DNA of 64,000 nt, taken from the IMG/VR virus record IMGVR_UViG_3300037467_000966. The stretch is one strand, 5' to 3'. Shown here piece by piece: positions 5,426 through 29,341 of this stretch. Origin of the DNA: a virus (Duplodnaviria > Heunggongvirae > Uroviricota > Caudoviricetes). The translations under genes were made by a program, and so were the position numbers. The first letter of the stretch is position 1, and each line of letters begins with the position of its first letter. A model generated the notes under the pieces. The model had not been told where the DNA came from. It saw only the letters and a list, made by a program, of their open reading frames with translations, and ran no database searches.

Positions 5426-5512
5426 TGGAGCTGCCAGGAGGATTCGAACCTCCGACCTCTCCCCGTCGATGTGGACTCTTGGGGGAGTATTCTACCGCTG
5501 AACTACAGCAGC
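5426..5512 (-). tRNA. tRNA-like gene with encoded CCA. Canonical acceptor, D and T arms, but a 19-nt anticodon loop (12-nt insertion). Anticodon possibly AAG if the insertion lies after position 37.
   Basis: Minus-strand read GCUGCUG-UA-GUUCAGCGGUAGAAU-A-CUCCC[19 nt]GGGAG-AGGUC-GGAGGUUCGAAUCCUCC-UGGCAGC-U-CCA. The 7-bp acceptor stem pairs (two GU), and the T loop UUCGAAU is canonical. Confidence 0.5.
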
Positions 5513-13019: not shown

Positions 13020-13937
13020 TTACGCAGTAGCCTCCGTCTTTTTAGCAGGAACTTTCTTCGCTGGAGTCTTCTTTACTTCCACTTCAGCCTTTGGTTCTTC
13101 AACTGGTTCTGGTTTTAAGAAACGTGCCTTATTCAGCTTGGTATCAAAGCTCATCGTTTGTGCATTGAAGGTAACGGCATGAGTCTTTAATCCTTCACCC
13201 TGTCTTGCGTCAGCTGATAACACTGTATTGGCAAAACCTAATGCTAAGTTCGCTGCCGTTTGGTTCGTAAAGATGTTCTGAGGATTGCTCACGGCCCGCT
13301 CCGCACAACTCATTTCATGTGGAAGTTTATCTGTTGCCTCTAGAATCTCTGGATACATATCCGCTACGCTTGGAAGATTGAATAAGTGAGGAACCTTTTC
13401 GCCCTTCACAAAGTCACGTCCAGCATTGTAACCAACAACAACTTGACCAGCCCACTCTTCATTTCCCATGTCCAGCCAGAACATACCTTTTGTTTCCTTG
13501 AACACTTCATTCACAATCGCACGAGTCTTATTGTTATCCACCGCACCGACTACGAAAGGAACCAAGTTATGCCGATTAACAATTTGCTTTAACATCTTTG
13601 GCCCATCCAGATATTCTCCAATGATGGTTACCTCAACACCGAACGCACCGCCATAACGCATGCCCATGATTTCAGCTTTGTTATGACCAACATCTCTTGG
13701 CAAGAAGTTCTGACGTGTTAAGTTCTTATCCTCAACGCTGTCTGCATCAATGATAGTTACTGCATGCAATGCCTTGTTCTCCAGCTTAAGCATTCTGTTT
13801 TGAAGACTGATTTGACGAATTAATTGTGGAATAAAATAACCGCCGTTGCCGCCTGCTCCAATAATAATCCAATGCTTTGCCTTCTTTGCTTGTACATCCA
13901 AAGTATAAGTTGGTTCTAATGCCATTGATAAATCCAT
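13020..13937 (-). CDS. E1-like ubiquitin-activating enzyme (ThiF/MoeB fold)
   Basis: Rossmann motif WIIIGAGGNGGY, then IIDADSVEDKNLTRQNF...DVGHNKAEI (the E1/ThiF ATP-binding and arginine-finger region). K/P/E-rich C-terminal tail. Confidence 0.8.
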   Translation of the reverse strand: MDLSMALEPTYTLDVQAKKAKHWIIIGAGGNGGYFIPQLIRQISLQNRMLKLENKALHAVTIIDADSVEDKNLTRQNFLPRDVGHNKAEIMGMRYGGAFGVEVTIIGEYLDGPKMLKQIVNRHNLVPFVVGAVDNNKTRAIVNEVFKETKGMFWLDMGNEEWAGQVVVGYNAGRDFVKGEKVPHLFNLPSVADMYPEILEATDKLPHEMSCAERAVSNPQNIFTNQTAANLALGFANTVLSADARQGEGLKTHAVTFNAQTMSFDTKLNKARFLKPEPVEEPKAEVEVKKTPAKKVPAKKTEATA

Positions 13938-14007
13938 GATTAATTCCTCCTAGTTTTTGTTTTGTTCCTTAATTGAAGTAAGAGCAGCCAAAGACTGCCC
14001 TCTCTTC

Positions 14008-15294
14008 TTAATCTAAGAACCAATCATTACGTTCGCCATGAAGATGACCATAACCGCTGTTCTCAGTCATTGTATCACTCACAACGTAATCGTACCCAAG
14101 GTCAATCAGCTCTTGAACGATTTCCTTAACGGTCTCTTCCACTTCGCCAATTGATTTAGTGTCGTCTCCCAGATTTTTTTCCAGAAAAATTTCGACTTCT
14201 GTTCTCGGCTCGCTGCTTGCGCTTTTGCTCGCGCTGCTCCCGCTTAGTGATTCTTTTTTTTTAGAATCTAAGCCTTGTGCTTTCGCATTAGCTGCCACAA
14301 TATCATCCTTGTTCGCTCGTCCCCCTGGTGAGCCATGGTAGCCATAGCCGCCAGATGTCCCATACCCATAGTAGTCCCACTCGTCCCCCCACTTGTCGTA
14401 ACTGGGAGATGTCCCTGTCCCCGACTTTTTTGCGTGATAGTTGTAACCTCCGTAAGAACGAGAGTGTTGTCCCATCCAATCGTCTGGAGCTTCAACACGA
14501 GGCCATGGTCCTTTAAATGATTTGTGTTCTACTTTTTCTTCGACTACTGGTTCGAATCCTTCTACTGGTACAGTAGTTGTTACCAGTGTCTTGATTTCTA
14601 CTTGAGGAATATCAAACAGCAAAGCTGGGTCAATGTTTACGCGTGTGCCGCCACATACCCAACGGAATAAGAAGTTTGGTTCATCCTTGTCGATGTTGCC
14701 CCATACTCCGTAGAACTGAGTCATGTTTTCATTGGCATCATCTGTACCAGACCAGAACGCTCCCATCGTATGGTGGCTGTGCGTCTCACATAATGGTGTG
14801 CAATTCTCACGAAGATAATTCACCATCCCATCCTGATGGAACTCAGATAATGAACCAGAGTTCTTTTGCTGTGGACAATACACAATCAACTGTCCATCTT
14901 CAATAAGGCCCTTGATGTCTGTGCCATCTGTATACTTTGGTGGCAGCTCCACATTATCATGATTCCAGAAGAACAATGCGCTGGCTTCTGTCTTATCCTT
15001 CGTATGAACATCACGATAGAAAGTTAATACCATGATTAGATACTTCAAAGGAATCTTTGGAATCAATAACTCTGGACCTTCTTCCATTGATTCAAGACCT
15101 GGAATTGCTTTGTCCGCTGGGATATCTGAAAGCTTTACTTTGAATAAAGCAACAGGAGTCTTCACCACTCGGAAGACCCCGTTACGTGCAACAACGATAT
15201 TGGTTGGTTTATCATAAGCCTCAGCTGGTTGTGGACCGAAGTGCTTACCTACTAATTGACCTGCTAACATTGCGGTTAAATCTAAATTTGCCAT
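14008..15294 (-). CDS. JAB/MPN (JAMM) metallopeptidase with long low-complexity G/Y/S-rich C-terminal region
   Basis: Perfect JAMM motif E...HSHHTMGAFWSGTD (H-x-H-x7-S-x2-D). Confidence 0.75.
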   Translation of the reverse strand: MANLDLTAMLAGQLVGKHFGPQPAEAYDKPTNIVVARNGVFRVVKTPVALFKVKLSDIPADKAIPGLESMEEGPELLIPKIPLKYLIMVLTFYRDVHTKDKTEASALFFWNHDNVELPPKYTDGTDIKGLIEDGQLIVYCPQQKNSGSLSEFHQDGMVNYLRENCTPLCETHSHHTMGAFWSGTDDANENMTQFYGVWGNIDKDEPNFLFRWVCGGTRVNIDPALLFDIPQVEIKTLVTTTVPVEGFEPVVEEKVEHKSFKGPWPRVEAPDDWMGQHSRSYGGYNYHAKKSGTGTSPSYDKWGDEWDYYGYGTSGGYGYHGSPGGRANKDDIVAANAKAQGLDSKKKESLSGSSASKSASSEPRTEVEIFLEKNLGDDTKSIGEVEETVKEIVQELIDLGYDYVVSDTMTENSGYGHLHGERNDWFLD

Positions 15295-15336
15295 TTTAAA
15301 ATTCCTCCAATTGTTTTAGTTTTTTGTTTGATTATC

Positions 15337-16095
15337 TTAACGTAAATACTGTTCACCATGACGACGAATGGCATCGCCTAAACGAATTGCTGGCTGTAAA
15401 ATATCATTCTTGAATCGTGGTGTTTCCCCTTTTGCGTCTGCTTCTTTACAGATTCTGTCCATGTATTGCAGTAAGTGAATCGTTCTCTCACGTACAATAC
15501 GTTGACCGTTTACCGTATCTTCAAAGCGCTCAAACTTGCCGCCATCTAAATCATTATTAAATGGATTAGCGAAGAAGCGGTCTGGAACAGTCATGATGGA
15601 TTTAGAACCACCAAGCGCTGGGTAATCAGACTCAGAACCCCAGCATAGGTAACTATGATTAGAGTTCGCAAATGGGAATGTATACAATTGGTCATTCAAG
15701 CTAAGCACAGGTTGCTTAATCGCATATGCTACTCCGTGGCGATACCGACGCGTATCATTTGCTGGGTTGTGCAAAACATGAATAATCCAAACTGCTGCTG
15801 GTGCTACAATCTGAAACTCAGGGAACGCATTCTCCCCTGTCTCGCTTCTCATATCAAACTTGGCAATGTGCCTTGTCTCTGGAGTTGCGATAACATACTG
15901 TTCCATGTTATTAACCTTTGTATATTTTTGTACGCCAAAACCATAAGGAAGAAGCGGCGATTCAATCCGCTCACCTCTGGTTAGGACTTCTTGAATTGCT
16001 TGAACATTTGTATTTTTGATTGAGCGCTCTCCATTACGGATAACTTCAATCTGAATACTATCTGGATTTAAGTGAATACTTGTGCGGTTTTCCAT
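15337..16095 (-). CDS. Putative E2-like (UBC-fold) conjugating enzyme
   Basis: FPFANSNHSYLCWGSESDYPAL aligns with the UbcH5 active-site region [23 protein letters not shown] (NSN-x-S-x2-C followed by S-x-W/Y-x-PAL). Adjacent to JAB and E1. Confidence 0.45.
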   Translation of the reverse strand: MENRTSIHLNPDSIQIEVIRNGERSIKNTNVQAIQEVLTRGERIESPLLPYGFGVQKYTKVNNMEQYVIATPETRHIAKFDMRSETGENAFPEFQIVAPAAVWIIHVLHNPANDTRRYRHGVAYAIKQPVLSLNDQLYTFPFANSNHSYLCWGSESDYPALGGSKSIMTVPDRFFANPFNNDLDGGKFERFEDTVNGQRIVRERTIHLLQYMDRICKEADAKGETPRFKNDILQPAIRLGDAIRRHGEQYLR

Positions 16096-16107
16096 TTCAA
16101 TTCCTCC

Positions 16108-17811
16108 TTAGAATGGTAAATCTTCTTCGTAAGTGTACTCTTCAATTACATCAAATGGCAGATGGTAATCATGGATTGCAACCCTTGCTCCATTGCTTAT
16201 ACCAGCGTATACGCATGCAGCATCAAGCTCACGGAAACGTCTTACATCCCCGCCTTCACGAATAACTACATAGCGCTCTAGTGGAATCGCTCTGCCGTTC
16301 ACATAGATGCCAGGTGCTGTTGCCCGCGGTGGTTCTGCAGTTGGTTCAGCTTGTACAACTTCTTCCACCTGAGCATTTAATCGAGCAATCAACTCATCAA
16401 ATGGCGTCTGCGTTGGAACTTCTTCCACCACTGGTTGTGCTGGCTGAGCTTGCAACTGTTGACGAAGTTGTTCAGCTAAAGCATGACGGCGTTCAGCATT
16501 GGCTCTCGCTTCTGCTTCTATACGCTGACGTTCTTGCTCTTCCAACTCTTGGAGTCGCGCTTCTTCCTCTTGGCGTCTTATGCGCTCAGCTTCCTGACGA
16601 GCACGTTCTTGTTCCATCTCACGACGGATTTGCTCTTCACGCTGACGACGTTCTTCTTCTAAACGAAGTCTTTCTGCTTCTTGACGAGCACGCTCTTCTG
16701 CCTCTTCACGCTCCTTCTGAATACGCTCCTGCTCTAACCAAGGCTCAATCTCAGCCTCCGCCTCACGACGGATACGCTGAGTAACCTCTAGCAACTCAGT
16801 ATGTCCTTCTGGCAATAAGTGCTTCCAGAATTCCATATTAAATTCAGCATAGATGTAATCTTGGATAACGATTGGAGCAACACCATTACGGCTACGGTCA
16901 CCAGTCATATCAATGCTGGTAACTTTACCCCAACCTTGCAGCTCATAACCTTCTGGCTCTTGGTAACCATCGAATGGTGGCAATGCAATCCATCCTTCTT
17001 CTTCAGAACCTGATGGAGCCATAACCTTTACCTTGAGTCCTGTAGGCACCATTTCCGCCGCTGTAGGAGCGACAGCATATTCAGGAGCCTTACCATTCTC
17101 TCTTGCCCATTCAAGGAACTTGTGAGCAAATAAGCGGTCTGTTGCATCAGCTGATTCTTGAAGCTGAACCGCTGGCTTGAATAACTTCTCCATCACCCTG
17201 CGGCTATAATCTCGAAGCTCAGTGCGGATACGCTCTAATCGTTCTTGCTCACGGCGCTGAATCTCTGCTTCCATTAACCTTGTAACTTCACCATGGATTG
17301 CAGCTAGCGCAGAATCCTTACTGTACTCAGCATCAATCCAGTTAACAAAATCAACTAGGCCAGACTGAATGAATTGATAGATGCGATTGGTCTTGAACGG
17401 AATGTACAAGAATGTATTCCCGTTTCTTTCTTCGCGGCGAACCACATAACCAGATTGAAAAGAATTACGATTGTCTCTCATTCTCCTATAAAGCTGATTG
17501 TGGTTCTGCTCAAACCAAGACTTCCATTCAGGTTCACTATTATAGATTTCTCTTATCTTGTTAGCTTTCCTGTGGATGTGACTATCAAGACGTAGAGAAT
17601 AACTATGTTGGTTCTGTCTAATGCGACAGCCAGGGAACTTCTTCTTTAGATAAGCGAACACTAAATCTTTCACTATCTCTTCTTCCTGTGCTCCTGTTTG
17701 TGGAAGCGGCGGAAACTCTTCAATGTATTGCTTGTTGGCAAGTAGCCTAGAACTCATTACAAAGTTTAACTTGCTGACTAATGCGGTTGCATTAACTGTC
17801 ATGTCCCTCAC
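16108..17811 (-). CDS. Large hypothetical protein with long E/R/Q-rich coiled-coil segment
   Basis: 567-aa ORF inside the Ubl-E2-JAB-E1 operon. Candidate adaptor, E3 or target. Confidence 0.6.
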   Translation of the reverse strand: MRDMTVNATALVSKLNFVMSSRLLANKQYIEEFPPLPQTGAQEEEIVKDLVFAYLKKKFPGCRIRQNQHSYSLRLDSHIHRKANKIREIYNSEPEWKSWFEQNHNQLYRRMRDNRNSFQSGYVVRREERNGNTFLYIPFKTNRIYQFIQSGLVDFVNWIDAEYSKDSALAAIHGEVTRLMEAEIQRREQERLERIRTELRDYSRRVMEKLFKPAVQLQESADATDRLFAHKFLEWARENGKAPEYAVAPTAAEMVPTGLKVKVMAPSGSEEEGWIALPPFDGYQEPEGYELQGWGKVTSIDMTGDRSRNGVAPIVIQDYIYAEFNMEFWKHLLPEGHTELLEVTQRIRREAEAEIEPWLEQERIQKEREEAEERARQEAERLRLEEERRQREEQIRREMEQERARQEAERIRRQEEEARLQELEEQERQRIEAEARANAERRHALAEQLRQQLQAQPAQPVVEEVPTQTPFDELIARLNAQVEEVVQAEPTAEPPRATAPGIYVNGRAIPLERYVVIREGGDVRRFRELDAACVYAGISNGARVAIHDYHLPFDVIEEYTYEEDLPF

Positions 17812-17816
17812 CTCTC

Positions 17817-18368
17817 TTAAATAAAGTCAATAGATTCAACTGCTACTGTTCTTGCACGAGTTATTTGATTCACAAAGCCAACGACTTGTCTTTCTACTTC
17901 TGGCAAACGACGCTGTATCTGATGCTTAAAATCATTAAGTTGACTATCATTGTAACGACTAAAGTCCTGAACGGTTTGTGCATTGTTTATCGTTTCAATG
18001 ATTTGTCTTAGGTCAGATGTCAGCAAAAATCTTTCCCGTTCACCCTCAAGGTCATTACAAATCCTTGCGATGTCTGGTAAGAATCCATTTGCTTCCCAGT
18101 GGTCAGCAGGCTCTTCATTCCTTACTACTTCTACTTCCACTGCTGGTCTTGCCTGTACTGCTTCTTCTGGATTCACTTGTTCATTCCTCCTTAGTGATTC
18201 ACATCTTTGACAAACTCGATAATGTGAATAAGAATCTCTATCAACCGTTTGGTTGCTGAAGCCTTGACCGCAATACATTCTGTCGCCGCTTCTTCTAATA
18301 TGAAGAACTCGCGTTGTATTACTTGGAACATACTCAATCGTTGCTACCATCTCTACACTCCCTTTCAT
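17817..18368 (-). CDS. Hypothetical protein with N-terminal Cys cluster (C-x19-CxxC), possible zinc-binding module
   Basis: 183-aa ORF directly downstream of the hexa-repeat gene. Confidence 0.55.
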   Translation of the reverse strand: MKGSVEMVATIEYVPSNTTRVLHIRRSGDRMYCGQGFSNQTVDRDSYSHYRVCQRCESLRRNEQVNPEEAVQARPAVEVEVVRNEEPADHWEANGFLPDIARICNDLEGERERFLLTSDLRQIIETINNAQTVQDFSRYNDSQLNDFKHQIQRRLPEVERQVVGFVNQITRARTVAVESIDFI

Positions 18369-18428
18369 AAAAAAATAGAGGGCCGTGCATAAGCAAGCAG
18401 CCCTCTACCTTTTGTCATGGTATCCAGA

Positions 18429-19508
18429 TTAAGCTAATTTAATCACTAGCTTTGTGAAACGGGCACCTTTCGTACCAGCTTTCACGGTGAAACGAATCTC
18501 GTCGCCAACCACTTCGAATGTTGCATTCTTCAGTTCAGGGAAGATTTCGCTCATGGATGCCTGGATTTCTTCAGGCTTTAAGCTGTCGTCTTCCACGTTA
18601 AGGCGGTTAGAGCCGTATACAACGACTCTCGCACCTTTCGTACCAGCCTTAACAGTGAATCGGATTTCATCCCCAACAACTTCAAACGTTGCGTTTTTCA
18701 ACTCAGGAAAGATTTCAGACATGGAAGCCTGAATCTCTTCTGGTTTTAAGGAATCATCCTCAACATTTAAACGATTAGAACCATAAACAACTACGCGTGC
18801 CATACCTTTCGTCCCCGCTTTCACTGTGAATCGAATTTCATTTCCAACTACCTCGTAGGTAGCATTCTTCAACTCTGGAAAAATCTCAGACATAGATGCC
18901 TGGATTTCTGCTGGAGTCAAAGATGAGTCCTCTACATTCAGACGGTTTGAACCATACACAACAACTCTTGTCATACCTTTTGTACCTGCCTTTACTGTGA
19001 ATCGGATTTCGTTTCCTACTACTTCATACGTAGCATTTTTAAGCTCTGGGAAAATCTCGCTCATAGAAGCTTGAATCTCCGCTGGTGTTAAAGAAGAATC
19101 TTCAACATTCAAACGATTGGAGCCGTAAACAACCACGCGGGTCTGGCCTGAACCAGAACCCTTTGTGCCTGCTTTGACAGTGAAACGAATCTCATTGCCT
19201 ACGACTTCGAAAGTAGCGTTCTTAAGCTCAGGGAAAATCTCAGACATAGAAGCTTTGATTTCCTCTGGGCTTAAAGAATCATCCTCAACGTTTAAGCGGT
19301 TGGAACCGTATACCACAACGCGGGTAGCACCCTTCGTCCCAGCTTTAACTGTGAAGCGGATTTCGTTTCCAACGACTTCGTAAGTTGCATTCTTTAACTC
19401 AGGAAAAATTTCAGACATTGACGCTTGAATTTCTGCAGGTGTTAAAGAAGAATCCTCCACGTTAAGACGATTTGAACCATAAACCACTACTCTTGTTTGA
19501 TTAGACAT
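18429..19508 (-). CDS. Tandem hexa-repeat small-domain protein (6 x ~57 aa, each unit ending ...KAGTKG), candidate polyubiquitin-like precursor
   Basis: Six near-identical units (T)RVVVYGSNRLNVED(S/D)SL(T/K)P(A/E)EI(Q/K)ASMSEIFPELKNAT(Y/F)EVVG(N/D)EIRFTVKAGTKG. First gene of the operon that ends with E2-like, JAB and E1. Confidence 0.6.
   Translation of the reverse strand: MSNQTRVVVYGSNRLNVEDSSLTPAEIQASMSEIFPELKNATYEVVGNEIRFTVKAGTKGATRVVVYGSNRLNVEDDSLSPEEIKASMSEIFPELKNATFEVVGNEIRFTVKAGTKGSGSGQTRVVVYGSNRLNVEDSSLTPAEIQASMSEIFPELKNATYEVVGNEIRFTVKAGTKGMTRVVVYGSNRLNVEDSSLTPAEIQASMSEIFPELKNATYEVVGNEIRFTVKAGTKGMARVVVYGSNRLNVEDDSLKPEEIQASMSEIFPELKNATFEVVGDEIRFTVKAGTKGARVVVYGSNRLNVEDDSLKPEEIQASMSEIFPELKNATFEVVGDEIRFTVKAGTKGARFTKLVIKLA
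18462..19499 (-). repeat. Six tandem ~171-180 bp near-identical coding repeats
   Basis: DNA-level repetition is visible (e.g. gtgaaacgaatctcgtc/gccaac...cttcagttcaggg recurs with period ~171-180 bp). Confidence 0.85.
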
Positions 19509-19857: not shown

Positions 19858-20037
19858 TTACAAACCCATTTTCTTGATTACTTGATTCTTCATCTTGCGT
19901 TTTACTCCATTGACTTTTGAGTTCAACTTCTTCTTGATGAACTTCTCAGGGTCGGCCTGCATCTCAAGGGCCGCGGCCATGGCGTTCAACTTCTTCGCCA
20001 TAGCACGCAACTCTTTCGGGTTGTTAGAGAACAACAT
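19858..20037 (-). CDS. Small basic protein (59 aa), translationally coupled (TAATG) to the upstream gene
   Basis: Minus-frame MLFSNNPKELRAMAKKLNAMAAALEMQADPEKFIKKKLNSKVNGVKRKMKNQVIKKMGL. Below the 60-aa track threshold. Confidence 0.4.
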   Translation of the reverse strand: MLFSNNPKELRAMAKKLNAMAAALEMQADPEKFIKKKLNSKVNGVKRKMKNQVIKKMGL

Positions 20038-21824
20038 TATTTGTTGCCCTTAACATCCTTAGCTTGTGCTTGTGGAGCTGCTGGGGCGCCTCCAAACAGA
20101 CCACCTTGACCATTGAATCCACCCATTAAAGCAAGAGTAGTTAGGTCAAGTTCGCCATCGCCAAGAGCTAGCATCATCATTGGATTGAAGTTGCCGCCGC
20201 CTTGTTGACCCATCATCATCAATGGAAGAAGCTTATCCTTAGAACCGCCATCTTTCATTGCAAGAAGCATCAATGGATTGAATCCTTGAGAAGCTACTCC
20301 ACCTTGTTGCATCAACATTAATGGTAGTAAGTCATCCATGTTATCGCCAAGAAGCATTAACATTGTTGGGTCGATTGCTCCACCCTGAGCACCACCAAAG
20401 CCGCCAGTAAGAGCCATGATTTTCACAAGCTCATCCTTGTTACCATCGCCAAGGGCAAGAAGTAAAGCTGGGTTGAATCCGCCTTGACCAGCAGCATCCA
20501 ATGTCTTAACAACAGTGTAGAATGCTTTACCAAAGATTGGGTTAGTAGTTGGTAGTACAGAACCATTAGCGTTCTTTTCAGGTACAACCACTTCTACATA
20601 ACCATCATTTACTTTAGTAACATACCCAAAATCAGCACCGTTTAATACAATGTCTCCAACTTTTACTTCATCAGCAGCAGTTGGTAATTTGAATGCAGGT
20701 ACATTGAAGTCAAGAGTTAATCCAGTTACATCAGTGATAGTGCGTGTTGCTGGTTCGAATGCCACAAAGTTTTGAGAGATACCTTTACGAAGTGCAAGAC
20801 CGCCAGTTGTGATTGAGAATGCAAATTTTCCTTCTACTTTACCAAATTGATTTTTGAATGCTCCGAATAAGTTTTTCATAGTTCCATTACCTCCGATTGT
20901 TTTGTTTGATTTTTGGTTTAATTTTGCGTTTAATTGAGCTTGTACATCAGCTTGCTGTTTTGCTTGTGCTAACTTTTGGTTTAATTGATTTTGAATATCC
21001 ACTTTCAACGCCTCCGCTTTTTGTTTTTGTTCGATTGCTGCCACACGATTGATAGCTTCATATGCTGCATCTTGTGCATCATACGCTACATCAGCAACAC
21101 TTTCGATTTCGTGAGCAACATCACTCACTCTGTCATCAAGGCTACCAATTTCATAACCAAGACTGTTTACTGCGCTTTGAAGACGACTTGCATCTTCTCG
21201 TACTTCGTTTGCCCTTTGCTTTGCAATTGCCGCATCAAGCCGTGCTTGGCTACCCACTTGCTGAGCAGATTGAGCACGAAGATTAGCTGTTAAAGAAGAT
21301 TGTTTTGCTTCTTCAACTTCCTTGCTGATGTTGTTCACGCCATCAAACATGCTGACATGTGAATAAGCATGAGAGTGAGCTAGGTTATAGTCGCCATAAA
21401 AAGATTCAGCACCACGGAAAGCGTAGTAATCGTCGTCCTCTTCCTCCTCTTCGTCATCCTCATCGTCCCAATCGTCATCTCCGTAGATATCATCTTCTGT
21501 ATAGCTAGAAGCTTGTTCTACTTGAGCGCGAAGAGAATCAGTTAACGACTGACCTTTCACTTGCGCCCGAAGCTGAGAAGTTAAATCATTCTTCTTTGTA
21601 TCAACCACGTTAACTAGATGATACTCAGCTCCTTCATATCCTTGAATCAGAGTGCCAATACCACGCTTCTGAGATTCAAAGATGCCAGCTGCTACTTGCT
21701 TACGAACAAGAACTTGATGTCCTGTATTCGTATCAATCTTGTAGTTGCTCCCTCCAATCGTAATAATTTCACCAACTGCGACATCAGATAGTTTTCTTAA
21801 ACCCACTGTGTCAACCTCCTTCAT
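20037..21824 (-). CDS. Large hypothetical protein: N-terminal domain, poly-acidic tract (DDDWDDEDDEEEEEDDD), coiled coil, C-terminal Met/Leu/Gly-rich repeats (FNPxLLLAxGDG...GG)
   Basis: 595-aa ORF with 3-4 degenerate C-terminal repeats. Confidence 0.7.
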   Translation of the reverse strand: MKEVDTVGLRKLSDVAVGEIITIGGSNYKIDTNTGHQVLVRKQVAAGIFESQKRGIGTLIQGYEGAEYHLVNVVDTKKNDLTSQLRAQVKGQSLTDSLRAQVEQASSYTEDDIYGDDDWDDEDDEEEEEDDDYYAFRGAESFYGDYNLAHSHAYSHVSMFDGVNNISKEVEEAKQSSLTANLRAQSAQQVGSQARLDAAIAKQRANEVREDASRLQSAVNSLGYEIGSLDDRVSDVAHEIESVADVAYDAQDAAYEAINRVAAIEQKQKAEALKVDIQNQLNQKLAQAKQQADVQAQLNAKLNQKSNKTIGGNGTMKNLFGAFKNQFGKVEGKFAFSITTGGLALRKGISQNFVAFEPATRTITDVTGLTLDFNVPAFKLPTAADEVKVGDIVLNGADFGYVTKVNDGYVEVVVPEKNANGSVLPTTNPIFGKAFYTVVKTLDAAGQGGFNPALLLALGDGNKDELVKIMALTGGFGGAQGGAIDPTMLMLLGDNMDDLLPLMLMQQGGVASQGFNPLMLLAMKDGGSKDKLLPLMMMGQQGGGNFNPMMMLALGDGELDLTTLALMGGFNGQGGLFGGAPAAPQAQAKDVKGNK

Positions 21825-22121
21825 AATAATGAATGTTTAAGCCAACCAACTCCCGAAGTTAGAGGGCTTATGACAGCCACTATAATAAATAAGAGCCAGA
21901 ACCTTTATCGGTCCCGACCCTTGTAAATGCATCGTGCAAGTATTTCTCCAATGACTTCAGCAACGATATTCCAAATGATATCTATCACTCTTTCATTCTT
22001 ATTTGATACTCCCATAGTATGCGAATCGGCTGGTCTTTATCCATCGTCATCCAGATTTCATCGTAATACTCTAGTTTCTCACCTAGTAATAACTTTTCCA
22101 TTGCTTCGCAAGGAGATAATA

Positions 22122-22976
22122 TCATTTAGTTAGCCTACTTGCCAAGATGGAAAATGTTTTTTCTTCACCAATGTTTTCTAAGTGTTGCCAGAACCATTCA
22201 GCTAAATCCTTACCAGTCATCTCACTTTCAAGGTCGCCTCCAAGTAGACCTTCAATGTTGTCCAGTTTCATAAGAATCATATCAATCTTACTAGGCGAAC
22301 GTCCTTCTCTTACGATTATCTCTGCGTTCTTATGATTCGCAAAGTATTCGCGTGTTGCTTTCTGAGCTGGCGTTTCCCCCTTCTGCTCTTCATGTTTAAG
22401 AAGTTTTAAATCTTCAGAGGTAGTAAGAATCAACTCGCTCTTCTCAGCAACTGGTTTTGATTTCTGTTCAGCCAGCTTTGCATTTAACTTATCCTGCAAT
22501 GTTTCAACCTTCGGCTCCTCCTTCTTCTGTTGAAGTTGAGCACGTAAGCTTGCAGCCAAATCAGGTTTCGGAAGTTCAGGAGCTGGTACATCGTGAATAG
22601 TTAACTGACCTTTCTCGACTTCTTCCTGGGCAACCGTTTCTGTTTCACATTCATTAATTTCTTTAATCAAATCCAATGAATACCGAGCAGGCCCAATGTT
22701 TAACACTGGATGACCGCCGCATAAATCAACCATACAAGAACTAACAACAGCCGAAGGAACATTATCTAATCCATCTCTTAATCCTGCCGCTCCATCCTGA
22801 GATGCAACGATGGCTTTGCCGAATCGAACTAAGATAAGACCTGGATGCTTCTTTACGAATGATTGAAGCTTACCTTCTAATTCCTCCATGGCTGGAATAA
22901 CAAATCTTTTCACCACATTTTCTTGCTCAAGTTCAACGAACATTCCTTCTGAACCTTTTGTTAAACTCAATCCCAT
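22122..22976 (-). CDS. Hypothetical protein (start adjusted to ATG with AAAGGAG RBS)
   Basis: The track ORF extends to 23036, but the internal ATG at 22976 has a strong SD 8 nt upstream and removes the out-of-frame overlap with the upstream gene. Confidence 0.6.
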   Translation of the reverse strand: MGLSLTKGSEGMFVELEQENVVKRFVIPAMEELEGKLQSFVKKHPGLILVRFGKAIVASQDGAAGLRDGLDNVPSAVVSSCMVDLCGGHPVLNIGPARYSLDLIKEINECETETVAQEEVEKGQLTIHDVPAPELPKPDLAASLRAQLQQKKEEPKVETLQDKLNAKLAEQKSKPVAEKSELILTTSEDLKLLKHEEQKGETPAQKATREYFANHKNAEIIVREGRSPSKIDMILMKLDNIEGLLGGDLESEMTGKDLAEWFWQHLENIGEEKTFSILASRLTK

Positions 22977-22989
22977 TTCATCATCTCCT

Positions 22990-23769
22990 TTAATATCCGC
23001 CTGGACTTTCTTCGCGGTGTCCTTGCCCACTGACAATCATGTTGTTTAACTTTCTAATATAATCACCCATTGTTTTGCATTCTTCCATGTGAGGAAATCC
23101 ACGGTTCTTCATTATCTTAAAGCATGTATCACCAACTTCATCTTCAACCATCTTTAAGCAATTACGAAGAAGAATATCTGTGCCCATTGGCTCCTTAACT
23201 GCTTCTTTTATTTCAGCATTCAATGGAGTATCAATGGTGAATCCATACTTGGCAGCGAACCGAATCGCCCGTGTTGCTAAGTTTGTTGTCATCCTGTCCG
23301 TTGTTTTTCTAATGATTCCTCTATCAAGGTCACGCCATGCATACTTCGGAGCATAGAAAAAACCATCTGACTTCAAACATATCTGATTAATACTAAAGTC
23401 AAAACGAACGGGAGCGAATGCCCACTCATCATCTGCATTAATCCAATGAACAGGTATTTCTGATTTCGTGAATGTGTAGGGGTCGCAATAGATGTCATGA
23501 GGAATCTCTGTTCCATCCTGCTGCCCAAGTGCTAACACTCCTGTCTTTTCTAAGATGTCTCTTGCATAAGGAACATCACGAATACAAACATCATAATCAT
23601 TCCAGTGCTTTCCCTTGTATAAATCCCTAGGAAACCCACCTGCAAATGACCATTGTGTTCCATGTTCCATTGCAACTGAATCCATTATATCCATGAATGT
23701 TTTCATGCCTGCATCAATCTGACCTTCATAAGGTCGTCTTTCGTATTCAACTTCAGTCGGGTGCATCAT
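22990..23769 (-). CDS. Hypothetical protein
   Basis: 259-aa ORF with coherent composition. Confidence 0.6.
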   Translation of the reverse strand: MMHPTEVEYERRPYEGQIDAGMKTFMDIMDSVAMEHGTQWSFAGGFPRDLYKGKHWNDYDVCIRDVPYARDILEKTGVLALGQQDGTEIPHDIYCDPYTFTKSEIPVHWINADDEWAFAPVRFDFSINQICLKSDGFFYAPKYAWRDLDRGIIRKTTDRMTTNLATRAIRFAAKYGFTIDTPLNAEIKEAVKEPMGTDILLRNCLKMVEDEVGDTCFKIMKNRGFPHMEECKTMGDYIRKLNNMIVSGQGHREESPGGY

Positions 23770-23995
23770 TTACCTCCTTTCATTAAACAAAACATCCAGC
23801 GTTCAGCATCATCGTTTCACGGCCCCGTGCTCGCGCAGTAGCCTGCCACTAGCTTAATAACTGGATGTGACATATAGATTTCAGATTAATCCTAAGACCT
23901 TCACCTAAAACGGTATGGCGGGAATCTCGCTTTTACTCGCTATGAGGACATTAATTACCAGCGTTGTCATCGCCGTAACCCTATTCTTAGGCAAC

Positions 23996-24151
23996 CTTAA
24001 TTTCTATTCATCTTAGACAGCACGATGTCAATCGTCACTGAAGTGTAGCTGCTCCCAAGAAGTCAACTCACTTAGGTAGTAAAAAATACTGGTTGGAGAT
24101 AACCTAAAAAACCTACCTACCATCATACTGTCTAAGACAAATAGAACCACA
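23996..24151. repeat. Inverted-repeat-flanked element, copy 1 (TIRs TTAATTTCTATTCATCTTAGACAG / CTGTCTAAGACAAATAGAACCA)
   Basis: ~22-bp imperfect terminal inverted repeats enclosing ~110 bp. Confidence 0.6.
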
Positions 24152-24316
24152 TCAACTTCGGACGGTGTACCATAATCCCCCTTCCTTCGATGTTGACCAC
24201 TCCTTGAATCAATCACGAAGGCGTAGGAAGTCCGCAGCCCATATTTAATCCTTGGCATTGATGTGGGATAAACAGATTTCAGTAGACCGCTTACGCTATT
24301 AGCGGGGTCCATGTGT

Positions 24317-24416
24317 CCTTAATTTCTATTCATCTGGGAAGATGCAAAGGCGGGGCCTACAATCGGGCATAATCCGCGGTCATATCATTGCATCCTCCAA
24401 GATAAATAGAACCATG
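24317..24416. repeat. Inverted-repeat-flanked element, copy 2 (TTAATTTCTATTCATCTGGGAAG / CTCCAAGATAAATAGAACCA)
   Basis: Same TIR family as copy 1, with different interior. Confidence 0.55.
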
Positions 24417-24563
24417 TGTAATTCAACGTCAACAGGCTGCCACGCTGCGTGACATTTAAACTTCGTCAAAGCTCCATCACCCTAGCTTAATATACACATG
24501 GTAATAAACAGATTTCAGAATCAATAGATGTGCAAGGCGGCTTAGAAGGCCGCGGCACTCATC

Positions 24564-24649
24564 TTAATTTCTATTTATCTTAGAAGGTACAACACATAAG
24601 TTGTGAGCTGGTCAAGCTCGTTATACCCTCTAGGATAAATAGAACCACA
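24564..24649. repeat. Inverted-repeat-flanked element, copy 3 (TTAATTTCTATTTATCTTAG / CTAGGATAAATAGAACCA)
   Basis: Same TIR family. Spacers between copies share TAAACAGATTTCAG. Confidence 0.55.
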
Positions 24650-24895
24650 TAGAGTTCAGTGTCGCGGTGTGAAGAGTTTGTTGGCTCGCTATGAGTTTCC
24701 ATCCCATCACTAACTTAATATCTATGTGGAACGCAAGAACTTCGGTTTCAAACAGGAATTGGTTTCCACTCACTAGTGCTGTCCACCCTAACCTTGGCAT
24801 TCTTACATCTTTGAAAATACGAAGCAGGGGAAAGGAACCGAAAAGGAAACCTGCCTCGTACCCTCAAAGACGAAAGAATATCTTTCGCCCGAAGC

Positions 24896-25561: not shown

Positions 25562-27091
25562 TTATTGGGCCGCCAATCTTTCACGAATTTCAGATAAGCT
25601 TTCTTCACGTTTGATTTCACCGTTCTCAAAGATAACTTCAAGAAGGTCAATGTTTGCAAAGTTTGCTTCATAAGTTTTCGTATCCAGATTATCAGTGGCT
25701 ACTAATTCACCACCGACTTTTACAACTGCCACTAATCCAGTTAATGATTTCTTTGTACCATCATCTGTCTTAGGGTCTTTCAATAAGAAGCGCTCTTCTC
25801 CATCCACTTCAGCAAAGGTTGCTTTCATCGCATGTGCAAATGTATCACGCGTTGTATACTGATAGGTAAAGCTTCCGATACCAAATACCACGTTTGTTGA
25901 AGCAAAGCCTTTTTCTTTTAACAAAGCACAAATCAAATCAGCTCTCTCTAGCGTAATAGAATCGCCGTAGATAGCTCCGATGTGAGGGTCTAATACTTTG
26001 TACCCTAAATCATTTACTGTGCCGCCAATGATGTCGTAGAGGCTCTCAATTAAACCTTTACGCACCAATTCTTCTTCTGCATTCGGGTCACCACAAAGAA
26101 TCTTAACTGGGTCACCACTGTCAGGACGAATAACCACGCGACCATCACGACCAAGGATTTCTTCTTTCAGCTTCGGTAAGTATTCACCAACCACTTTCCA
26201 GAAGTCCCAAGTATCAGATACTACGCTGAAGAAACCTGTTGGATACTTTTCAGTCATCAGTGATTTGAATAATTCATACTCATCTGTTTGACCGTATGCG
26301 CACATCACTGAATGTTCAGTCGCAGGTATTGAAGTTGCCACCAATTCTTTCTCGATGTTTGCATTGTAATAAGCTTCAAGATAATTGATAGCTGGGATTG
26401 TATCTGTACCAACAAAACTTAGTAAGTGACCAGCACCACTTGCTGCCGCCGCATCCTTGCCAGCCATACCGCGCATAGAGAAATCATGACCCTGGAATTC
26501 AACACCTGCTGTAGAACCTGTTGTTTCCATCGCATACGCATCAAGAATCTGACGGTACGTGTAAGCAATCGTTGCAGATGTTGTTGGCTGCCAAAGCTCA
26601 GCTGACATAATGGTTTCAAGATAATTTGTTACCCAGTAGAATTCATCCACTGTATTTTCGATGACCAACATTGGAACACGCATTGGAACCAACGTACCTT
26701 CTTTCACAGCTCTTACACGAACTGGAAGATAACCTAAATCATGAAGAGCTGCAATGTGCTCCGCATCGACCTTTGATGCTTCCATTAATGGGTCTGCAAC
26801 ACCCTGAACATTGCCAGGATTGATTAATGTAAAGTAGATAACACGTTGGTATTCAAATACCACTTCATCCTTTGGACGGCTAAAGAAATGCTCATTGAAG
26901 TAATCAACAAAGTATTTCTTGGTTAATCCTTGGAAGTTAAACGCTACAACTTTCTTTGCTTTCGGGAAGTACTTGTTGCCTCGTGCAATCCATGTGCTGA
27001 AAACCTTATTTGTTTTCTTTGGATACTGCTCACGGTGAGACACCTTGTAAAAATCACACAACAATGTAGCTGGAAAAATAGTTTTAGTCAT
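25562..27091 (-). CDS. nadV: Nicotinamide phosphoribosyltransferase family protein (NAMPT/NadV-like; could be the homologous nicotinamide-ADPR transferase)
   Basis: N-terminus LLCDFYKVSHREQYPKKTNKVFS parallels NAMPT [24 protein letters not shown]. Full-length 509 aa. Confidence 0.85.
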   Translation of the reverse strand: MTKTIFPATLLCDFYKVSHREQYPKKTNKVFSTWIARGNKYFPKAKKVVAFNFQGLTKKYFVDYFNEHFFSRPKDEVVFEYQRVIYFTLINPGNVQGVADPLMEASKVDAEHIAALHDLGYLPVRVRAVKEGTLVPMRVPMLVIENTVDEFYWVTNYLETIMSAELWQPTTSATIAYTYRQILDAYAMETTGSTAGVEFQGHDFSMRGMAGKDAAAASGAGHLLSFVGTDTIPAINYLEAYYNANIEKELVATSIPATEHSVMCAYGQTDEYELFKSLMTEKYPTGFFSVVSDTWDFWKVVGEYLPKLKEEILGRDGRVVIRPDSGDPVKILCGDPNAEEELVRKGLIESLYDIIGGTVNDLGYKVLDPHIGAIYGDSITLERADLICALLKEKGFASTNVVFGIGSFTYQYTTRDTFAHAMKATFAEVDGEERFLLKDPKTDDGTKKSLTGLVAVVKVGGELVATDNLDTKTYEANFANIDLLEVIFENGEIKREESLSEIRERLAAQ

Positions 27092-27512
27092 TATTTGTTT
27101 CCTCCCGTTTCAATTTAATATAACTGCTAGCTTGCTTTAATGAATAATAAGCTGACTCTAATCCTGCTCTGTCGTCCAGCAGGATGTTGTAATAAATCTT
27201 GCCGCCTTTAAACGGAAGACCTGGCATGTTTTCATTGACTGCGTCATAAGGAATATCCCATCTATCAAGATAATTCTTAATGAAATCATGTCGTTCTGGT
27301 TCACTTGTACTAAAGACAATCAAGTAACAGCCAAGCTTCTTGCACTCCCGAAGAAGTTCAATGACTTGGTCGTACTTGTTGCCTTCCTTGTGGTAGTCAT
27401 GAACCGTTCCATCAAAGTCATAAGCAACGATTAACTTCCCGTGCTGCTCCCACTCCTTAATTAAACGAAGGGTTGCAGCACCTGGCAATAGGTACGGGTC
27501 AGTCAAGAACAA
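27084..27512 (-). CDS. HAD-like phosphatase-fold protein (DxDGT motif)
   Basis: IVAYDFDGTVHDY motif I. 142 aa. Confidence 0.45.
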   Translation of the reverse strand: MFLTDPYLLPGAATLRLIKEWEQHGKLIVAYDFDGTVHDYHKEGNKYDQVIELLRECKKLGCYLIVFSTSEPERHDFIKNYLDRWDIPYDAVNENMPGLPFKGGKIYYNILLDDRAGLESAYYSLKQASSYIKLKREETNND

Positions 27513-28377
27513 TCAGCTCCTCGACATCCGTCACATCAATCTTATCTTTATATAGCTGATTTGCCCAATCATGTTGAGCTTGGTCAGATAAGATAGAGTT
27601 GGTTGTAAACACTTTGTTGATTGGACTTTCCGTAAATATTTTACCCTTGAAGATAGTGTCTTCTGCGTGAGCCACACAAAGATAGATTTCTTCAAAGCCA
27701 CGCTTCTTCAACTCATCAGCAGCCATGATAAACGTACCACCCTTACTGGATAAGTCATCAACGATAATCGCTTTCTTACCAATGCCTGGTGTAACCAAAT
27801 CAAGTTTCGTTATGTAACCTGTTTGGAAATCACGATGTTTCAAACCAACGATTGCTTGAAGGTCAAACATTTTCTCGTAACGTTTCTCCGCACCAGCATC
27901 AGGATAAACAAGGAAATCATTGTCGAAATCAAAATCAATTTCATTCATAACATAGTTCACTAAGAATTGATTTACCATTAATGGTTTTGAACGGTCAAGC
28001 AATGCACATGTTACATCTGAATGTGGTTCAATCACAAACACTTTATCGAAATAAAGGCTGTTAATAAAAGCAGAAACATATTTTAAAGTAAATACGCTGC
28101 CGCCTTCGCTTCTGTCCATGCGTGAATAAGGCATGTAATAAACAAGCAGATAACAAGGAACTGTTGCAATCAAGTCCATGTGATTCTTAACAAACATCAG
28201 CTTGATTAAATCCGCATCATCTTCGTACTTAAATGATAGGATATTTACCTGCTCCATATTTTGTTTGAAGAAATTGAGCGCTGGATGCTCCTCCGTTGCT
28301 TCAATTGTTGTAATCACATGTGTTTCGCCATTAGGAAATCTACCGAACGGAACTTCTTTGCCATTTAATAAAATCAT
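27499..28377 (-). CDS. Ribose-phosphate pyrophosphokinase (Prs) family protein, divergent. PRPP synthetase or ADPR-pyrophosphate synthetase-like
   Basis: YMPYSRMDR (Prs CFPYARQDK), VYPDAGAEKR (Prs SPDAGGAKR), and PRTase motif IIVDDLSSKGGT. Confidence 0.8.
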   Translation of the reverse strand: MILLNGKEVPFGRFPNGETHVITTIEATEEHPALNFFKQNMEQVNILSFKYEDDADLIKLMFVKNHMDLIATVPCYLLVYYMPYSRMDRSEGGSVFTLKYVSAFINSLYFDKVFVIEPHSDVTCALLDRSKPLMVNQFLVNYVMNEIDFDFDNDFLVYPDAGAEKRYEKMFDLQAIVGLKHRDFQTGYITKLDLVTPGIGKKAIIVDDLSSKGGTFIMAADELKKRGFEEIYLCVAHAEDTIFKGKIFTESPINKVFTTNSILSDQAQHDWANQLYKDKIDVTDVEELIVLD

Positions 28378-28613
28378 TTTGACTCCTCCACTTCTTCTTC
28401 TAATGGTTCACCGAATGCTGCCGATACAAGAATCGTATTGCTGTTGTCGTACTCCCAAACTTTCACGAATGGGTCAATGCCTTTTGGAGCCTTAAACTTA
28501 CGTGTTGTGCGTGGCGGGATGGGACTCATATCGCATTCAATCCCATGAATCGCTGTTGCTGGATGAATCACATACTCCTTGTTTGTATCATTGTAAAATA
28601 TCATATTATCCAC
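28374..28613 (-). CDS. Hypothetical protein
   Basis: 79-aa ORF. Confidence 0.5.
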   Translation of the reverse strand: MDNMIFYNDTNKEYVIHPATAIHGIECDMSPIPPRTTRKFKAPKGIDPFVKVWEYDNSNTILVSAAFGEPLEEEVEESK

Positions 28614-29341
28614 CCATCTAAAGTCGCATCAAAGATTAAATCTCTTAGCTTCTCCTGAAGCTGATTGTTTACTTCGACACGAATTTCTTTTGATTTGTAA
28701 ACATCTTTTAATTCTTGTGCTGCTGTTTCCCAATCCTTAATCAGCATTCTGATTTCATCAAATGTAAACTTACCACGTTTGATATCTATCATGAACTGGC
28801 GTTCTTCACCTTCATACCAGATAGCTTTCTTGTAGTCCGTAAAGCCATTTGCATGAAACTTAACCAGTACTTTGCAAAGATGAACAGCCAACATTGCTTT
28901 CTTTGGATTGTAAGCATGTCGTTCAATCAGTGCCCGTGTCTTCTCCGAAGTTGGATTCTGAAGGTCATTGATGTTCCGCTGAACCGTACCCATCGTAGCA
29001 CTGTAAAGATTGGAGAGATTCATATTGGCTATGTCATCTCTCATCGCAATGATTTCATCCATCTTCTGGCATCCGAATGTTTCAATGCCTGGGCTAAATA
29101 ATAAATCAAGATAAGCAGGATTCGCTTTGAACAATAAAGTCTCAAGCCGTCTTACATCCTGAACATCTTCATCCACTTCATCCGAAGTTGTTTGCTTTGC
29201 ATGCTTCTTGCCTTCATATAAATCATCAAAGGTTGGAAGAACAAAGTATTTCAAATCCACATCTGATTGTTCATCATTTAAATTACGCATATGACTGCCG
29301 CCATTTATCATAGCAACAACATGTCTGTCATGCTTCTTCAT
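28601..29341 (-). CDS. Predicted nucleotidyltransferase (Pol-beta superfamily fold)
   Basis: GGSHMRNLNDEQSDVDL fits the GS-x9-13-DxD NTase signature. Confidence 0.5.
   Translation of the reverse strand: MKKHDRHVVAMINGGSHMRNLNDEQSDVDLKYFVLPTFDDLYEGKKHAKQTTSDEVDEDVQDVRRLETLLFKANPAYLDLLFSPGIETFGCQKMDEIIAMRDDIANMNLSNLYSATMGTVQRNINDLQNPTSEKTRALIERHAYNPKKAMLAVHLCKVLVKFHANGFTDYKKAIWYEGEERQFMIDIKRGKFTFDEIRMLIKDWETAAQELKDVYKSKEIRVEVNNQLQEKLRDLIFDATLDGWII

Follow-up and report, generated by a model that had tools for sequence, protein, structure and literature searches.

Tandem structured RNA cassettes with tRNA-class cargo precede a truncated CCA-adding-type enzyme gene in giant phages

What fills a gene-free spacer of 1.1 kb in the genome of a large phage? 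The question is raised by positions 23770-24895 of a 64,000-nucleotide (nt) stretch of DNA from a member of the Caudoviricetes (IMG/VR record IMGVR_UViG_3300037467_000966; the whole stretch is hereafter called the window), where an earlier note had marked three elements bounded by inverted repeats. Our analysis showed that the spacer is filled by an array of five structured RNA units, read from the minus strand, which is also the strand of the flanking genes. The array consists of conserved cassettes, tRNA-class cargo occupies the corresponding positions in relatives and at two other loci of the window, and the linkage of the array to a gene for a truncated CCA-adding-type enzyme is fixed. We propose that the array is an operon of tRNA-class small RNAs carried in a phage-specific processing scaffold and tied to the tRNA-repair enzymes of the phage, a reading to which we give a probability of roughly 55% and in which function and processing are what we infer.

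The three elements were confirmed by motif matching. Their left arm, TTAATTTCTATTYATCT, matches exactly at 23997, 24319 and 24564, and their right arm, AGAYAAATAGAACCA, at 24135, 24400 and 24633 (one mismatch); neither occurs again in the 64 kb, where a search for further copies of the terminal inverted repeat had been recommended. The arms had been thought capable of forming hairpins; over 25-26 nt their complementarity is 85-88%. From start to start the copies are 322/245 and 265/233 nt apart, which bears out the description of the region as a degenerate tandem repeat, and the spacer sequence said to be shared, TAAACAGATTTCAG, is present as two exact copies and one variant. A GGCGG...CCGCGG segment, also listed as common to the spacers, turned out not to occupy equivalent positions, one instance lying inside the tip of the second element and the other in a spacer. 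The count of three was incomplete as well, because there is a fourth, divergent hairpin at ~24806-24872 and a fifth unit that has no hairpin, so that the repeat fills the whole spacer. The 94-amino-acid (aa) open reading frame predicted inside the region was rightly doubted, since it has no family match and the equivalent gap contains no called gene in any of nine relatives.

These relatives were traced from homologues of the downstream nucleotidyltransferase (48-78% identity) to contigs in JGI, ENA and Logan assemblies. A protein identical to that of the window occurs on contigs of up to 526 kb, which indicates a giant-phage origin, and two other JGI contigs are 100% identical over the spacer region. 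Nine loci with upstream sequence were obtained (L167, L170, L171, L172, L174, L175, L176, L177 and L183), and in all nine the nucleotidyltransferase gene, whose product is 48-73% identical to that of the window, is immediately preceded by a gap of 905-2094 nt that holds no gene. Since the neighbour on the upstream side is not constant (it is DUF7020, RlaP, NAMPT or another gene), it is the nucleotidyltransferase gene to which the array is anchored. Hairpins with differing tips recur in every gap; their consensus base is UUCUAUUUAUCUUAG...CUAAGAUGAAUAGA, and (A/U)NYYAAG comes after it. According to the earlier note, absence of the repeats from related phages, together with a lack of any transcript or DNA-end signal at the site, would have pointed to neutral junk; all nine fetched relatives carry the array.

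A common grammar underlies the ten loci. On the RNA strand a unit begins with CUGAAwUCU.. (~10 nt, called b'), the 5' strand of a helix P1 (8-10 nt), UNYYA-AG and a variable cargo, and continues with CU-GAAN, the 3' strand of P1, a hairpin P2, (A/U)NYYA-AG and a linker. P1 is a clamp of 9-10 bp that closes the cargo through a conserved asymmetric internal loop, 5'-UNYYA / 5'-GAAN. P2, which follows directly after P1, is a hairpin of 25-30 bp whose lower stem is conserved in sequence and whose tip is variable. The linker to the next cassette is itself folded and can be closed by the same type of clamp using the 3' strand of P2. The three elements of the earlier note (its copies 1, 2 and 3) are thus the P2 hairpins of units 4, 3 and 2. 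The internal loop appears to resemble the UAA/GAN internal-loop motif. Several known motifs were compared by eye and dropped: a hammerhead core (CUGA is present and the G8/A9 and GAAA elements are absent), a kink-turn (the 5' strand of the loop has no GA), integron attC (the core sites do not fit) and ribozymes like that of hepatitis delta virus.

The pairing is supported by covariation. Because automatic clamp parsers were noisy, we curated 41 P1 units from the ten loci by hand; changes on both sides were found at 9 of 9 P1 pairs, and 98.1% of cells were paired, compared with 63% in shuffles and 27-43% when the partner strand was slid by 1-3 columns. The closing AG/CU are mutually paired in 34-36 of the 41 units, leaving a conserved 5-by-4 internal loop, and a third closing pair, unused for unit choice, covaries too (CG 11, AU 7, UA 7, UG 4). 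In P2, both sides changed at 25 of 29 pairs and 87% of cells were paired versus 74.5% in shuffles; this stem also has two conserved U-G wobbles and, in about one third of the copies, an optional 2-by-2 loop. A covariance model built from 34 trimmed hairpins gave 41 sense-strand P2 matches in the window and relatives, all inside arrays and none in the other 63 kb of the window.

The measures of strand point to the minus strand. In the window copies, pairing runs past the shared 12-15 nt into sequences that differ from copy to copy and compensate each other within a copy, and mismatches that read C-A or A-C on the plus strand become G-U pairs on the minus strand, which makes the latter more stable: the folds of the three elements are -60.9/-37.5/-34.4 kcal/mol on the minus and -39.1/-32.7/-32.2 kcal/mol on the plus strand. 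Against dinucleotide shuffles, the two halves of the spacer gave z = -6.9 and -3.8. Independently of unit choice, the minimum free energy of the whole gap is 12-24% lower for sense than for antisense in all ten loci. P1 contains 24 G-U pairs to 3 A-C pairs and P2 contains 107 to 24, and the sense-strand scores of the covariance model are ~15-35 bits above the antisense scores at the same place.

The base of P2 has more than one possible partner. Its purine-rich 3' strand (a, GAUGAAUAGA) is complementary to two pyrimidine strands, the 5' strand of P2 (b) and b' (UCUGUUUAUU), the 10 nt after the next CUGAAA. A helix a:b' would shut off the linker domain in the way that P1 shuts off the cargo, with the same loop and the same AG/CU pairs. 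Unit 1 offers no b to strand a, whose only partner there is b' (11 bp). Among the window, L167, L170 and L172, which form a clade, a:b' has 9-10 of 10 pairs in 13 of 13 cases, compensatory changes included, and over all loci 76% of positions are paired in the fixed register compared with at most 49% when slid. Because a:b and a:b' are mutually exclusive, they suggest a switch or a pathway in which folding is ordered. In addition, UUCUAUUUAUCUU, the conserved base of P2, is a perfect mirror repeat (24002-24014, 24326-24338 and 24571-24583 in the window, and the partner arms). A triple helix there was considered; b' fits a better as an antiparallel duplex, with 10 of 10 pairs, than as a parallel third strand, with ~7-8 of 10, and no convincing triple-helix model was obtained.

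In the window the units could be mapped one by one, all on the minus strand. Unit 1 opens with a short hairpin, GGGCGAAAGA-UAU-UCUUUCGUC (24870-24891), which stands immediately behind the stop codon of DUF7020, the gene upstream, and is visible both in the sequence and in the fold of minimum energy. In 6 of the 10 loci the 5' strand of this first hairpin reads GGCGAA(A)G, a motif missing from the remaining loci and from every later unit. A divergent P2, GUCUUUGAGGGUACGAGGCAGG...CCUGCUUCGUAUUUUCAAAGA, lies at 24806-24872, as indicated by compensating changes among loci and by the covariance model (match 24787-24883, 50.8 bits, E-value 2.9e-9). The clamp a1:b'2 (24730-24809), found in both the grammar scan and the minimum-energy fold, pairs GAUGUAAGAAU (24809-24799) with GUUCUUGCGUU (24740-24730) over 11 bp and encloses linker domain 1 (24798-24741), a conserved GGGUGGACAGCAC...GGAAACC domain that is 74-84% identical in L167, L170, L172 and L183.

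Unit 2 has a P1 clamp at 24645-24729, where CCACAUAGA (24729-24721) pairs with UCUAUGUGG (24653-24645) around a cargo of 67 nt (24720-24654). Its P2 with the AUUAAG tail (24563-24644, copy 3) is supported by the fold and by a covariance-model match at 24557-24648 that scores 57.0 bits on the minus and 34.7 bits on the plus strand. The alternative clamp a2:b'3 (24503-24579), in which GAUAAAUAGA (24579-24570) pairs with UCUGUUUAUU (24512-24503), encloses a 44-nt linker with a GC hairpin and competes with the P2 base of this unit. The P1 clamp of unit 3 (24411-24502) pairs ACCAUGUGUA (24502-24493) with UACACAUGGU (24420-24411) around a 72-nt cargo, and its P2 and AUUAAG tail (24318-24410, copy 2) rest likewise on the fold and the model (match 24312-24415, 54.7 bits minus versus 26.5 plus); this hairpin is orthologous to the last hairpin of L172, with 81% identity. 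A second alternative clamp, a3:b'4 (24267-24334), pairs GAUGAAUAGA (24334-24325) with UCUGUUUAUC (24276-24267) and encloses a linker of 35 nt.

The P1 clamp of unit 4 (24147-24266) pairs CCACAUCAA (24266-24258) with UUGAUGUGG (24155-24147), and its 102-nt cargo contains a degenerate copy (CAAGGAGUGGUCAACAUCGA) of the expanded anticodon-arm motif of a tRNA-like RNA described below; the clamp and cargo region is orthologous to positions 567-709 of the L170 gap. The P2 of this unit, with a three-way tip of 93 nt and an AUUAAG tail (23996-24146, copy 1; from the fold), is orthologous to the hairpin at 350-490 of the L170 gap, where it stands at a different unit position. The segment 23869-23995 then holds linker domain 4, which has 111 nt and shows 78-79% identity to L167 and L170; CUGAAA and b'5 (UCUAUAUGUC, 23878-23869) come after it. 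Unit 5 has a P1 clamp at 23792-23868, ACAUCCAGU (23868-23860) pairing with GCUGGAUGU (23800-23792) around 59 nt of cargo, and the place of a hairpin is taken by the ribosome-binding site of the nucleotidyltransferase gene and its start codon. A last clamp, of differing and covarying sequence, stands 8-25 nt before the ribosome-binding site in all ten loci. Cargo sizes in this array are thus 59-102 nt, and unit lengths are 233-322 nt.

What the clamps enclose is most easily recognised in other arrays. In L177, a tRNA-Lys(UUU) of 55.7 bits lies inside a P1-enclosed cargo, as does a match to the YrlA-like module of Rfam with 33.2 bits (E-value 0.0018; the threshold is 69 bits); a clamp-enclosed cargo of L174 holds a tRNA of 33.8 bits, and further tRNA-like inserts stand between P1 and P2 in L172, L183 and L177. 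L177 (2854-4945) is a relative of much higher GC content, 54% versus ~42%, and the cassette architecture is kept there through compensated sequences.

The window itself contains two more such loci. A loose grammar scan of its whole length gave 46 rows, many of them duplicate registers of one helix, versus 7-26 for shuffled sequence; raw counts are near the shuffled level and only their clustering in three intergenic regions is meaningful. A second array with the same grammar, also on the minus strand, covers 11586-12008 and has three clamps. The first (12008-12000/11883-11875) encloses a tRNA at 11904-11975 (31.4 bits) with an odd anticodon loop, the second (11871-11863/11751-11743) encloses a tRNA-like sequence at 11764-11848, to which ARAGORN gives a 4-base "anticodon", and the third (11680-11672/11594-11586) encloses a domain of 86 nt; the clamps of the tRNA and the tRNA-like sequence carry UGCCAAG / CUGAAG motifs. 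The third locus (5130-5512, minus strand) consists of a tRNA-like gene, a clamp (5321-5314/5232-5225) and a degenerate P2-like hairpin at ~5224-5130 with a CUUAG...CUAAG core. The tRNA-like gene (5429-5512) matches the tRNA family of Rfam with 51.7 bits, has a 17-nt anticodon loop, CAAGAGUCCACAUCGAC, and an encoded UCCAAGG tail, and is assigned no anticodon by ARAGORN. The motif of this anticodon loop recurs in array cargos of L172, L170, L167 and L176 and is degenerate in unit 4 of the window.

The cassettes appear to evolve as modules. Between relatives the number of units is roughly 3 to 7, and units are gained, lost and reordered. The long hairpin of window unit 4 matches that of the second unit of L170 and the cargo of unit 4 matches the third unit, and such orthologous pieces at different unit positions suggest independent cassettes rather than one rigid RNA. 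In the closest relative (P0002, 78% identity), five contigs from independent assemblies (L178-L182) all break off within the last unit, ~80 nt before the gene, which fits either assembly breaks induced by the repeat or strain variation.

This modularity bears on the strongest alternative, that the spacer encodes a single large multi-domain non-coding RNA of ~1.1 kb which acts whole and uncut, as an assembly scaffold or a ribonucleoprotein, like the ornate RNAs of some phages. Phages have GOLLD and ROOL RNAs in the neighbourhood of tRNAs, and a GOLLD RNA may itself include tRNAs. That precedent, of a kilobase-scale, highly structured phage RNA associated with tRNAs, favours the idea, as does the folding of the entire spacer, in which the linkers take part; our scan found neither promoters nor terminators inside it, and the repeated complementary strands (a, b and b') could make higher-order or intermolecular contacts. 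A fixed three-dimensional architecture is hard to reconcile, however, with a unit number that varies so widely among close relatives, with the reordering of units and with tRNAs that are inserted or absent. Neither GOLLD, ROOL nor any other large RNA of Rfam gave a match, and the array is built of repeated modules whose copy number varies. We regard a single uncut RNA as unlikely, if still deserving of attention.

The product of the gene to which the array is anchored (22990-23769, minus strand, 259 aa) can be assigned from its motifs, a family profile and a structure model as a truncated class II tRNA nucleotidyltransferase. The protein has no Pfam match; PHROGs annotates it as a nucleotidyltransferase. 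The family alignment shows GGFxRD...NDYDVC (GGFPRDLYKG...NDYDVC in the window) and RAIRFAAKYGF, and the family profile matches CCA-adding enzymes and poly(A) polymerase among solved structures with E-values of 5e-7 to 1e-5. Its AlphaFold model has a predicted local distance difference test score (pLDDT) of 90.9, and each of the top 44 Foldseek matches is a CCA-adding enzyme, another tRNA nucleotidyltransferase or bacterial poly(A) polymerase (best E-value 3.8e-10), with a target coverage of only 0.3-0.45, the solved enzymes having 370-440 aa. The head-domain motif GGxxRD...DxD and the head-neck fold are present, and because the protein is ~150 residues shorter than the solved enzymes, the body and tail domains are lacking. 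In class II tRNA nucleotidyltransferases these domains hold the tRNA elbow, and EDxxR is the nucleotide-selection motif. Judged by eye from the alignment of this family, the position just before RFAAKYGF, where EDxxR would be expected, reads (T/S)NxAxR. The family is rare, with 14 clusters (50% identity) at E-values below 1e-30 among 1.84 billion representative proteins.

Other genes for RNA repair are nearby. Upstream of the array, in transcription order, stand genes for a sigma factor, an RlaP-type nucleotidyltransferase (28601-29341, minus strand), a phosphoribosyl pyrophosphate (PRPP) synthetase, NAMPT and the DUF7020 protein; NAMPT and the PRPP-synthetase-like gene (25562-28377, minus strand) form a salvage pair for nicotinamide adenine dinucleotide (NAD). 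The RlaP-type gene adjoins the array in L167, L172 and L176, and enzymes of the RlaP family add 1-2 nucleotides to damaged RNA 3' ends (PMC12776372). A full-length CCA-adding enzyme with an HD domain is encoded at 41629-42882. As context rather than proof, the NAD salvage genes, the RlaP-type gene and the full-length CCA-adding enzyme fit a counter-defence setting. Downstream of the nucleotidyltransferase, two proteins of 304 and 595 aa (20037-23036, minus strand) are kept in all relatives and have no detectable family or solved relative. Farther away on the minus strand, the window encodes a ubiquitin-like conjugation set (13020-19508), made up of a ThiF-like E1, a JAB peptidase and a protein of 359 aa that has three Prok_Ub repeats, with a Prok-E2 gene in addition in relatives, and a set of the tellurite-resistance type in a phage genome (5823-9006; vWA-TerF-like, TerC and two TerD).

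The earlier note had offered an array of small structured RNAs as one interpretation. It was right in outline, and missed the strand, the helix P1, the fact that the hairpins are one part of a larger cassette, and the link to tRNA-like RNAs and to the downstream nucleotidyltransferase. In the operon reading that we prefer, the cassette would be a phage-specific scaffold to express and process interchangeable tRNA-class small RNAs. The array would be co-transcribed with the downstream gene, and the transcript would be cut at the long double-stranded P2 stems by an RNase III-like activity and/or at the conserved loops. The released domains may then serve as substrates, cofactors or decoys for the phage enzymes that repair tRNA ends, namely the truncated CCA-adding-type nucleotidyltransferase, the RlaP-type nucleotidyltransferase and the full-length CCA-adding enzyme, in a conflict with host nucleases that attack tRNA.

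Two kinds of known system resemble this proposal in part. Phage tRNA clusters can include co-transcribed stable small RNAs, as in the tRNA region of T4. The likeness lies in polycistronic tRNA-class RNAs of a large phage, set among genes for nucleotide metabolism and RNA repair, and in the real tRNAs at some positions; the difference is that here each RNA has a repeated clamp-plus-hairpin cassette and that in the main array of the window the clamps hold cargos other than tRNAs. Hairpins processed by RNase III are known from the early transcripts of phage T7, and rRNA has comparable processing stems. Here, too, hairpins of at least 25 bp with related sequences and an internal loop are repeated between units, and flanking helices bracket the RNA that would be released; stems of ~20 bp or more between units, the mark of RNase III-type processing, recur in the form of the 25-30 bp P2 stems. 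The difference is that the P2 base has a competing strand, that the released units would be non-coding and that cleavage is a prediction.

Several points weigh against the operon reading. Transcription, processing and any role of a nucleotidyltransferase are matters that we infer. A scan of the spacer for sigma-70 promoters and terminators gave nothing convincing and nothing above shuffles. The lower P2 stem is conserved in sequence besides its pairing and has a competing partner strand, neither of which is explained by a simple processing stem. The cargos of the main array are not recognisable tRNAs, and no Rfam match was found in the spacer even at E-values of up to 10. The two other arrays of the window are not adjacent to a nucleotidyltransferase, and the adjacency seen at the main array could be a gene order inherited within one phage lineage. 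Finally, the alignments behind the pair counts are trimmed constructs, whose units were picked partly by complementarity. As for candidate signals, CUGAAA...UAUAUU matches a promoter at only 9 of 12 positions, with an 18-nt spacer, in one unit, and we do not read it as a promoter because it sits inside a covarying RNA helix. The bidirectional terminators once suggested for the elements did not hold up: U-tracts are absent, the tails read AUUAAG, and the terminator scan was empty inside 23770-24895, with a count not above that of shuffles.

Alternatively, the array could be a cis-acting leader of the nucleotidyltransferase operon, which would sense a signal, for example the condition of tRNA 3' ends, and adjust how well the downstream mRNA is translated or how stable it is. 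The constant placement of the last clamp just before the ribosome-binding site would suit such a role, as would the mutually exclusive helices a:b and a:b'. But a leader of 0.9-2.1 kb with a variable number of units and embedded tRNA genes would be unprecedented, the ribosome-binding site is touched by the last unit only, and the same cassettes stand at two loci that have no such downstream gene, which together make a leader improbable.

By analogy with type III toxin-antitoxin systems, the units might instead be processed into an RNA antitoxin or inhibitor that neutralises the downstream nucleotidyltransferase. In those systems, near-identical ToxI repeats of ~36 nt stand upstream of an endoribonuclease of the ToxN/AbiQ type, and nucleotidyltransferases that modify tRNA ends can be toxins, as MenT is. 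The layout is indeed similar, with a tandem RNA repeat directly upstream of a single enzyme gene on the same strand in all loci. Repeat length, heterogeneity and protein family differ, however: the units are 233-322 nt long and heterogeneous rather than 34-36 nt and near-identical, and the protein has a CCA-adding fold and is neither a ToxN/AbiQ endoribonuclease nor a DUF1814 toxin. A terminator between array and gene was not found in the scan. We therefore give this possibility very little weight.

A role as Y RNAs that bind Ro60/Rsr, a protein that the host or another part of the 526-kb genome would encode, appears just as remote. YrlA is the nearest described family (RF02553), with GNCGAAN0-1G near its 5' end and a gene for Ro60/Rsr within ~4 kb on the same strand (Chen et al. 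2014, PMC4201824). It shares with the cassettes a distant 5'/3' stem around a permuted tRNA-like module (T-arm, closed acceptor stem, D-arm), which one L177 cargo matches, and both are found in phages, near RNA-repair genes, with several per locus possible. A motif like GNCGAAN0-1G, present in the first hairpin of only 6 of the 10 loci, and the nearby RlaP gene may also speak for the idea. Membership nonetheless fails on two grounds, the score, which stays below the Rfam threshold of 69 bits, and the absent Ro60 gene. Described YrlA genes lie within 4 kb of rsr (PMC4201824), whereas no gene with a TROVE domain was found among the 39 open reading frames of the window scanned against Pfam (all those of at least 180 aa and several smaller ones beside the spacer) or in the precomputed Pfam tables of the relatives. 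Most cargos are not tRNA-like; within 23770-24895 no tRNA or tRNA-like match was obtained, the degenerate anticodon-arm motif of unit 4 being the only trace of the YrlA tRNA-like domain. YrlA also has no counterpart of the P2 hairpin, of the UNYYA/GAAN loop or of the repetition of cassettes.

An element acting as DNA, such as insertions like miniature inverted-repeat transposable elements, a recombination hotspot, a replication origin, a packaging site or neutral junk, would suit the inverted repeats, the tandem layout, the shuffling of units between genomes and the five contigs that break inside the array, but it is scarcely credible given that folding is strand-asymmetric with a bias to G-U pairs, that compensatory changes keep the RNA helices, including the long-range P1 and 25-bp stems reaching well past the inverted repeat, that copies are confined to arrays, that the cumulative GC skew is monotonic across the window with no inflection and the neighbouring genes are all on the minus strand, that RNA pairing is conserved rather than protein-binding direct repeats, and that the position is kept across proteins only ~50% identical.

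How new is the array? Rfam has no family for the hairpins or clamps of the window and relatives, and in the literature that we searched no paper describes this cassette. The RNA motif itself is new, while its kind is that of a phage cluster of tRNA-like non-coding RNAs. The non-coding RNA arrays of UG27 reverse transcriptases in phages (bioRxiv 10.64898/2026.09.22.753630) have units of ~150 nt beside a reverse transcriptase and two accessory genes, one for a small and one for a large protein. They too are variable, conserved in structure and diverse in sequence, with a hairpin that has a conserved asymmetric internal loop and with units gained and lost; here the units are ~230-320 nt, the partner is a nucleotidyltransferase and the cargo is tRNA-class. 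No reverse-transcriptase domain was found among the neighbouring genes in the window and relatives, the two accessory genes are absent too, and the only related hit is an RNase H-like RVT_3 domain at 3921-4637 of the window. When IMG/VR was scanned for exact copies of each arm, only single chance matches came up, none of them with both arms, and protein-seeded searches for the locus in IMG/VR and JGI contigs found nothing. A two-arm P2 pattern had no match in IMG/VR, JGI metagenome contigs or GTDB genomes, and since it matches eight of the loci analysed here, these collections lack the lineage. GenBank phages contained no DNA match and only one distant (26%) full-length nucleotidyltransferase.

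A bolder form of the operon reading is possible, although we hold it to be doubtful. The loci may represent undescribed phage RNA "cassette arrays", in which a universal clamp and a switchable hairpin would package small RNAs, whether tRNAs, tRNA mimics like Y RNA or other folded domains, and in which strand exchange between b and b' would govern folding or processing. The minimal CCA-adding-type enzyme, which lacks the domains that measure tRNA, would be the dedicated partner, and the whole would act as a system of tRNA-mimic decoys or of repair, with which giant phages would counter those host defences that cleave or alter tRNA.

Giant phages encode numerous tRNAs and enzymes of RNA repair, but little is known of the way in which their non-coding RNAs are arranged. 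The locus described here is a well-defined RNA module with strong support from covariation and no Rfam family. On the practical side, it can serve as a search key for hidden tRNA-like genes in phage "spacers". If our proposal is true, the array would be a new way to package and process small RNAs and a natural case of competing helices built into a repeat, and it would add a new player to the conflict over tRNA between phages and bacterial defences.

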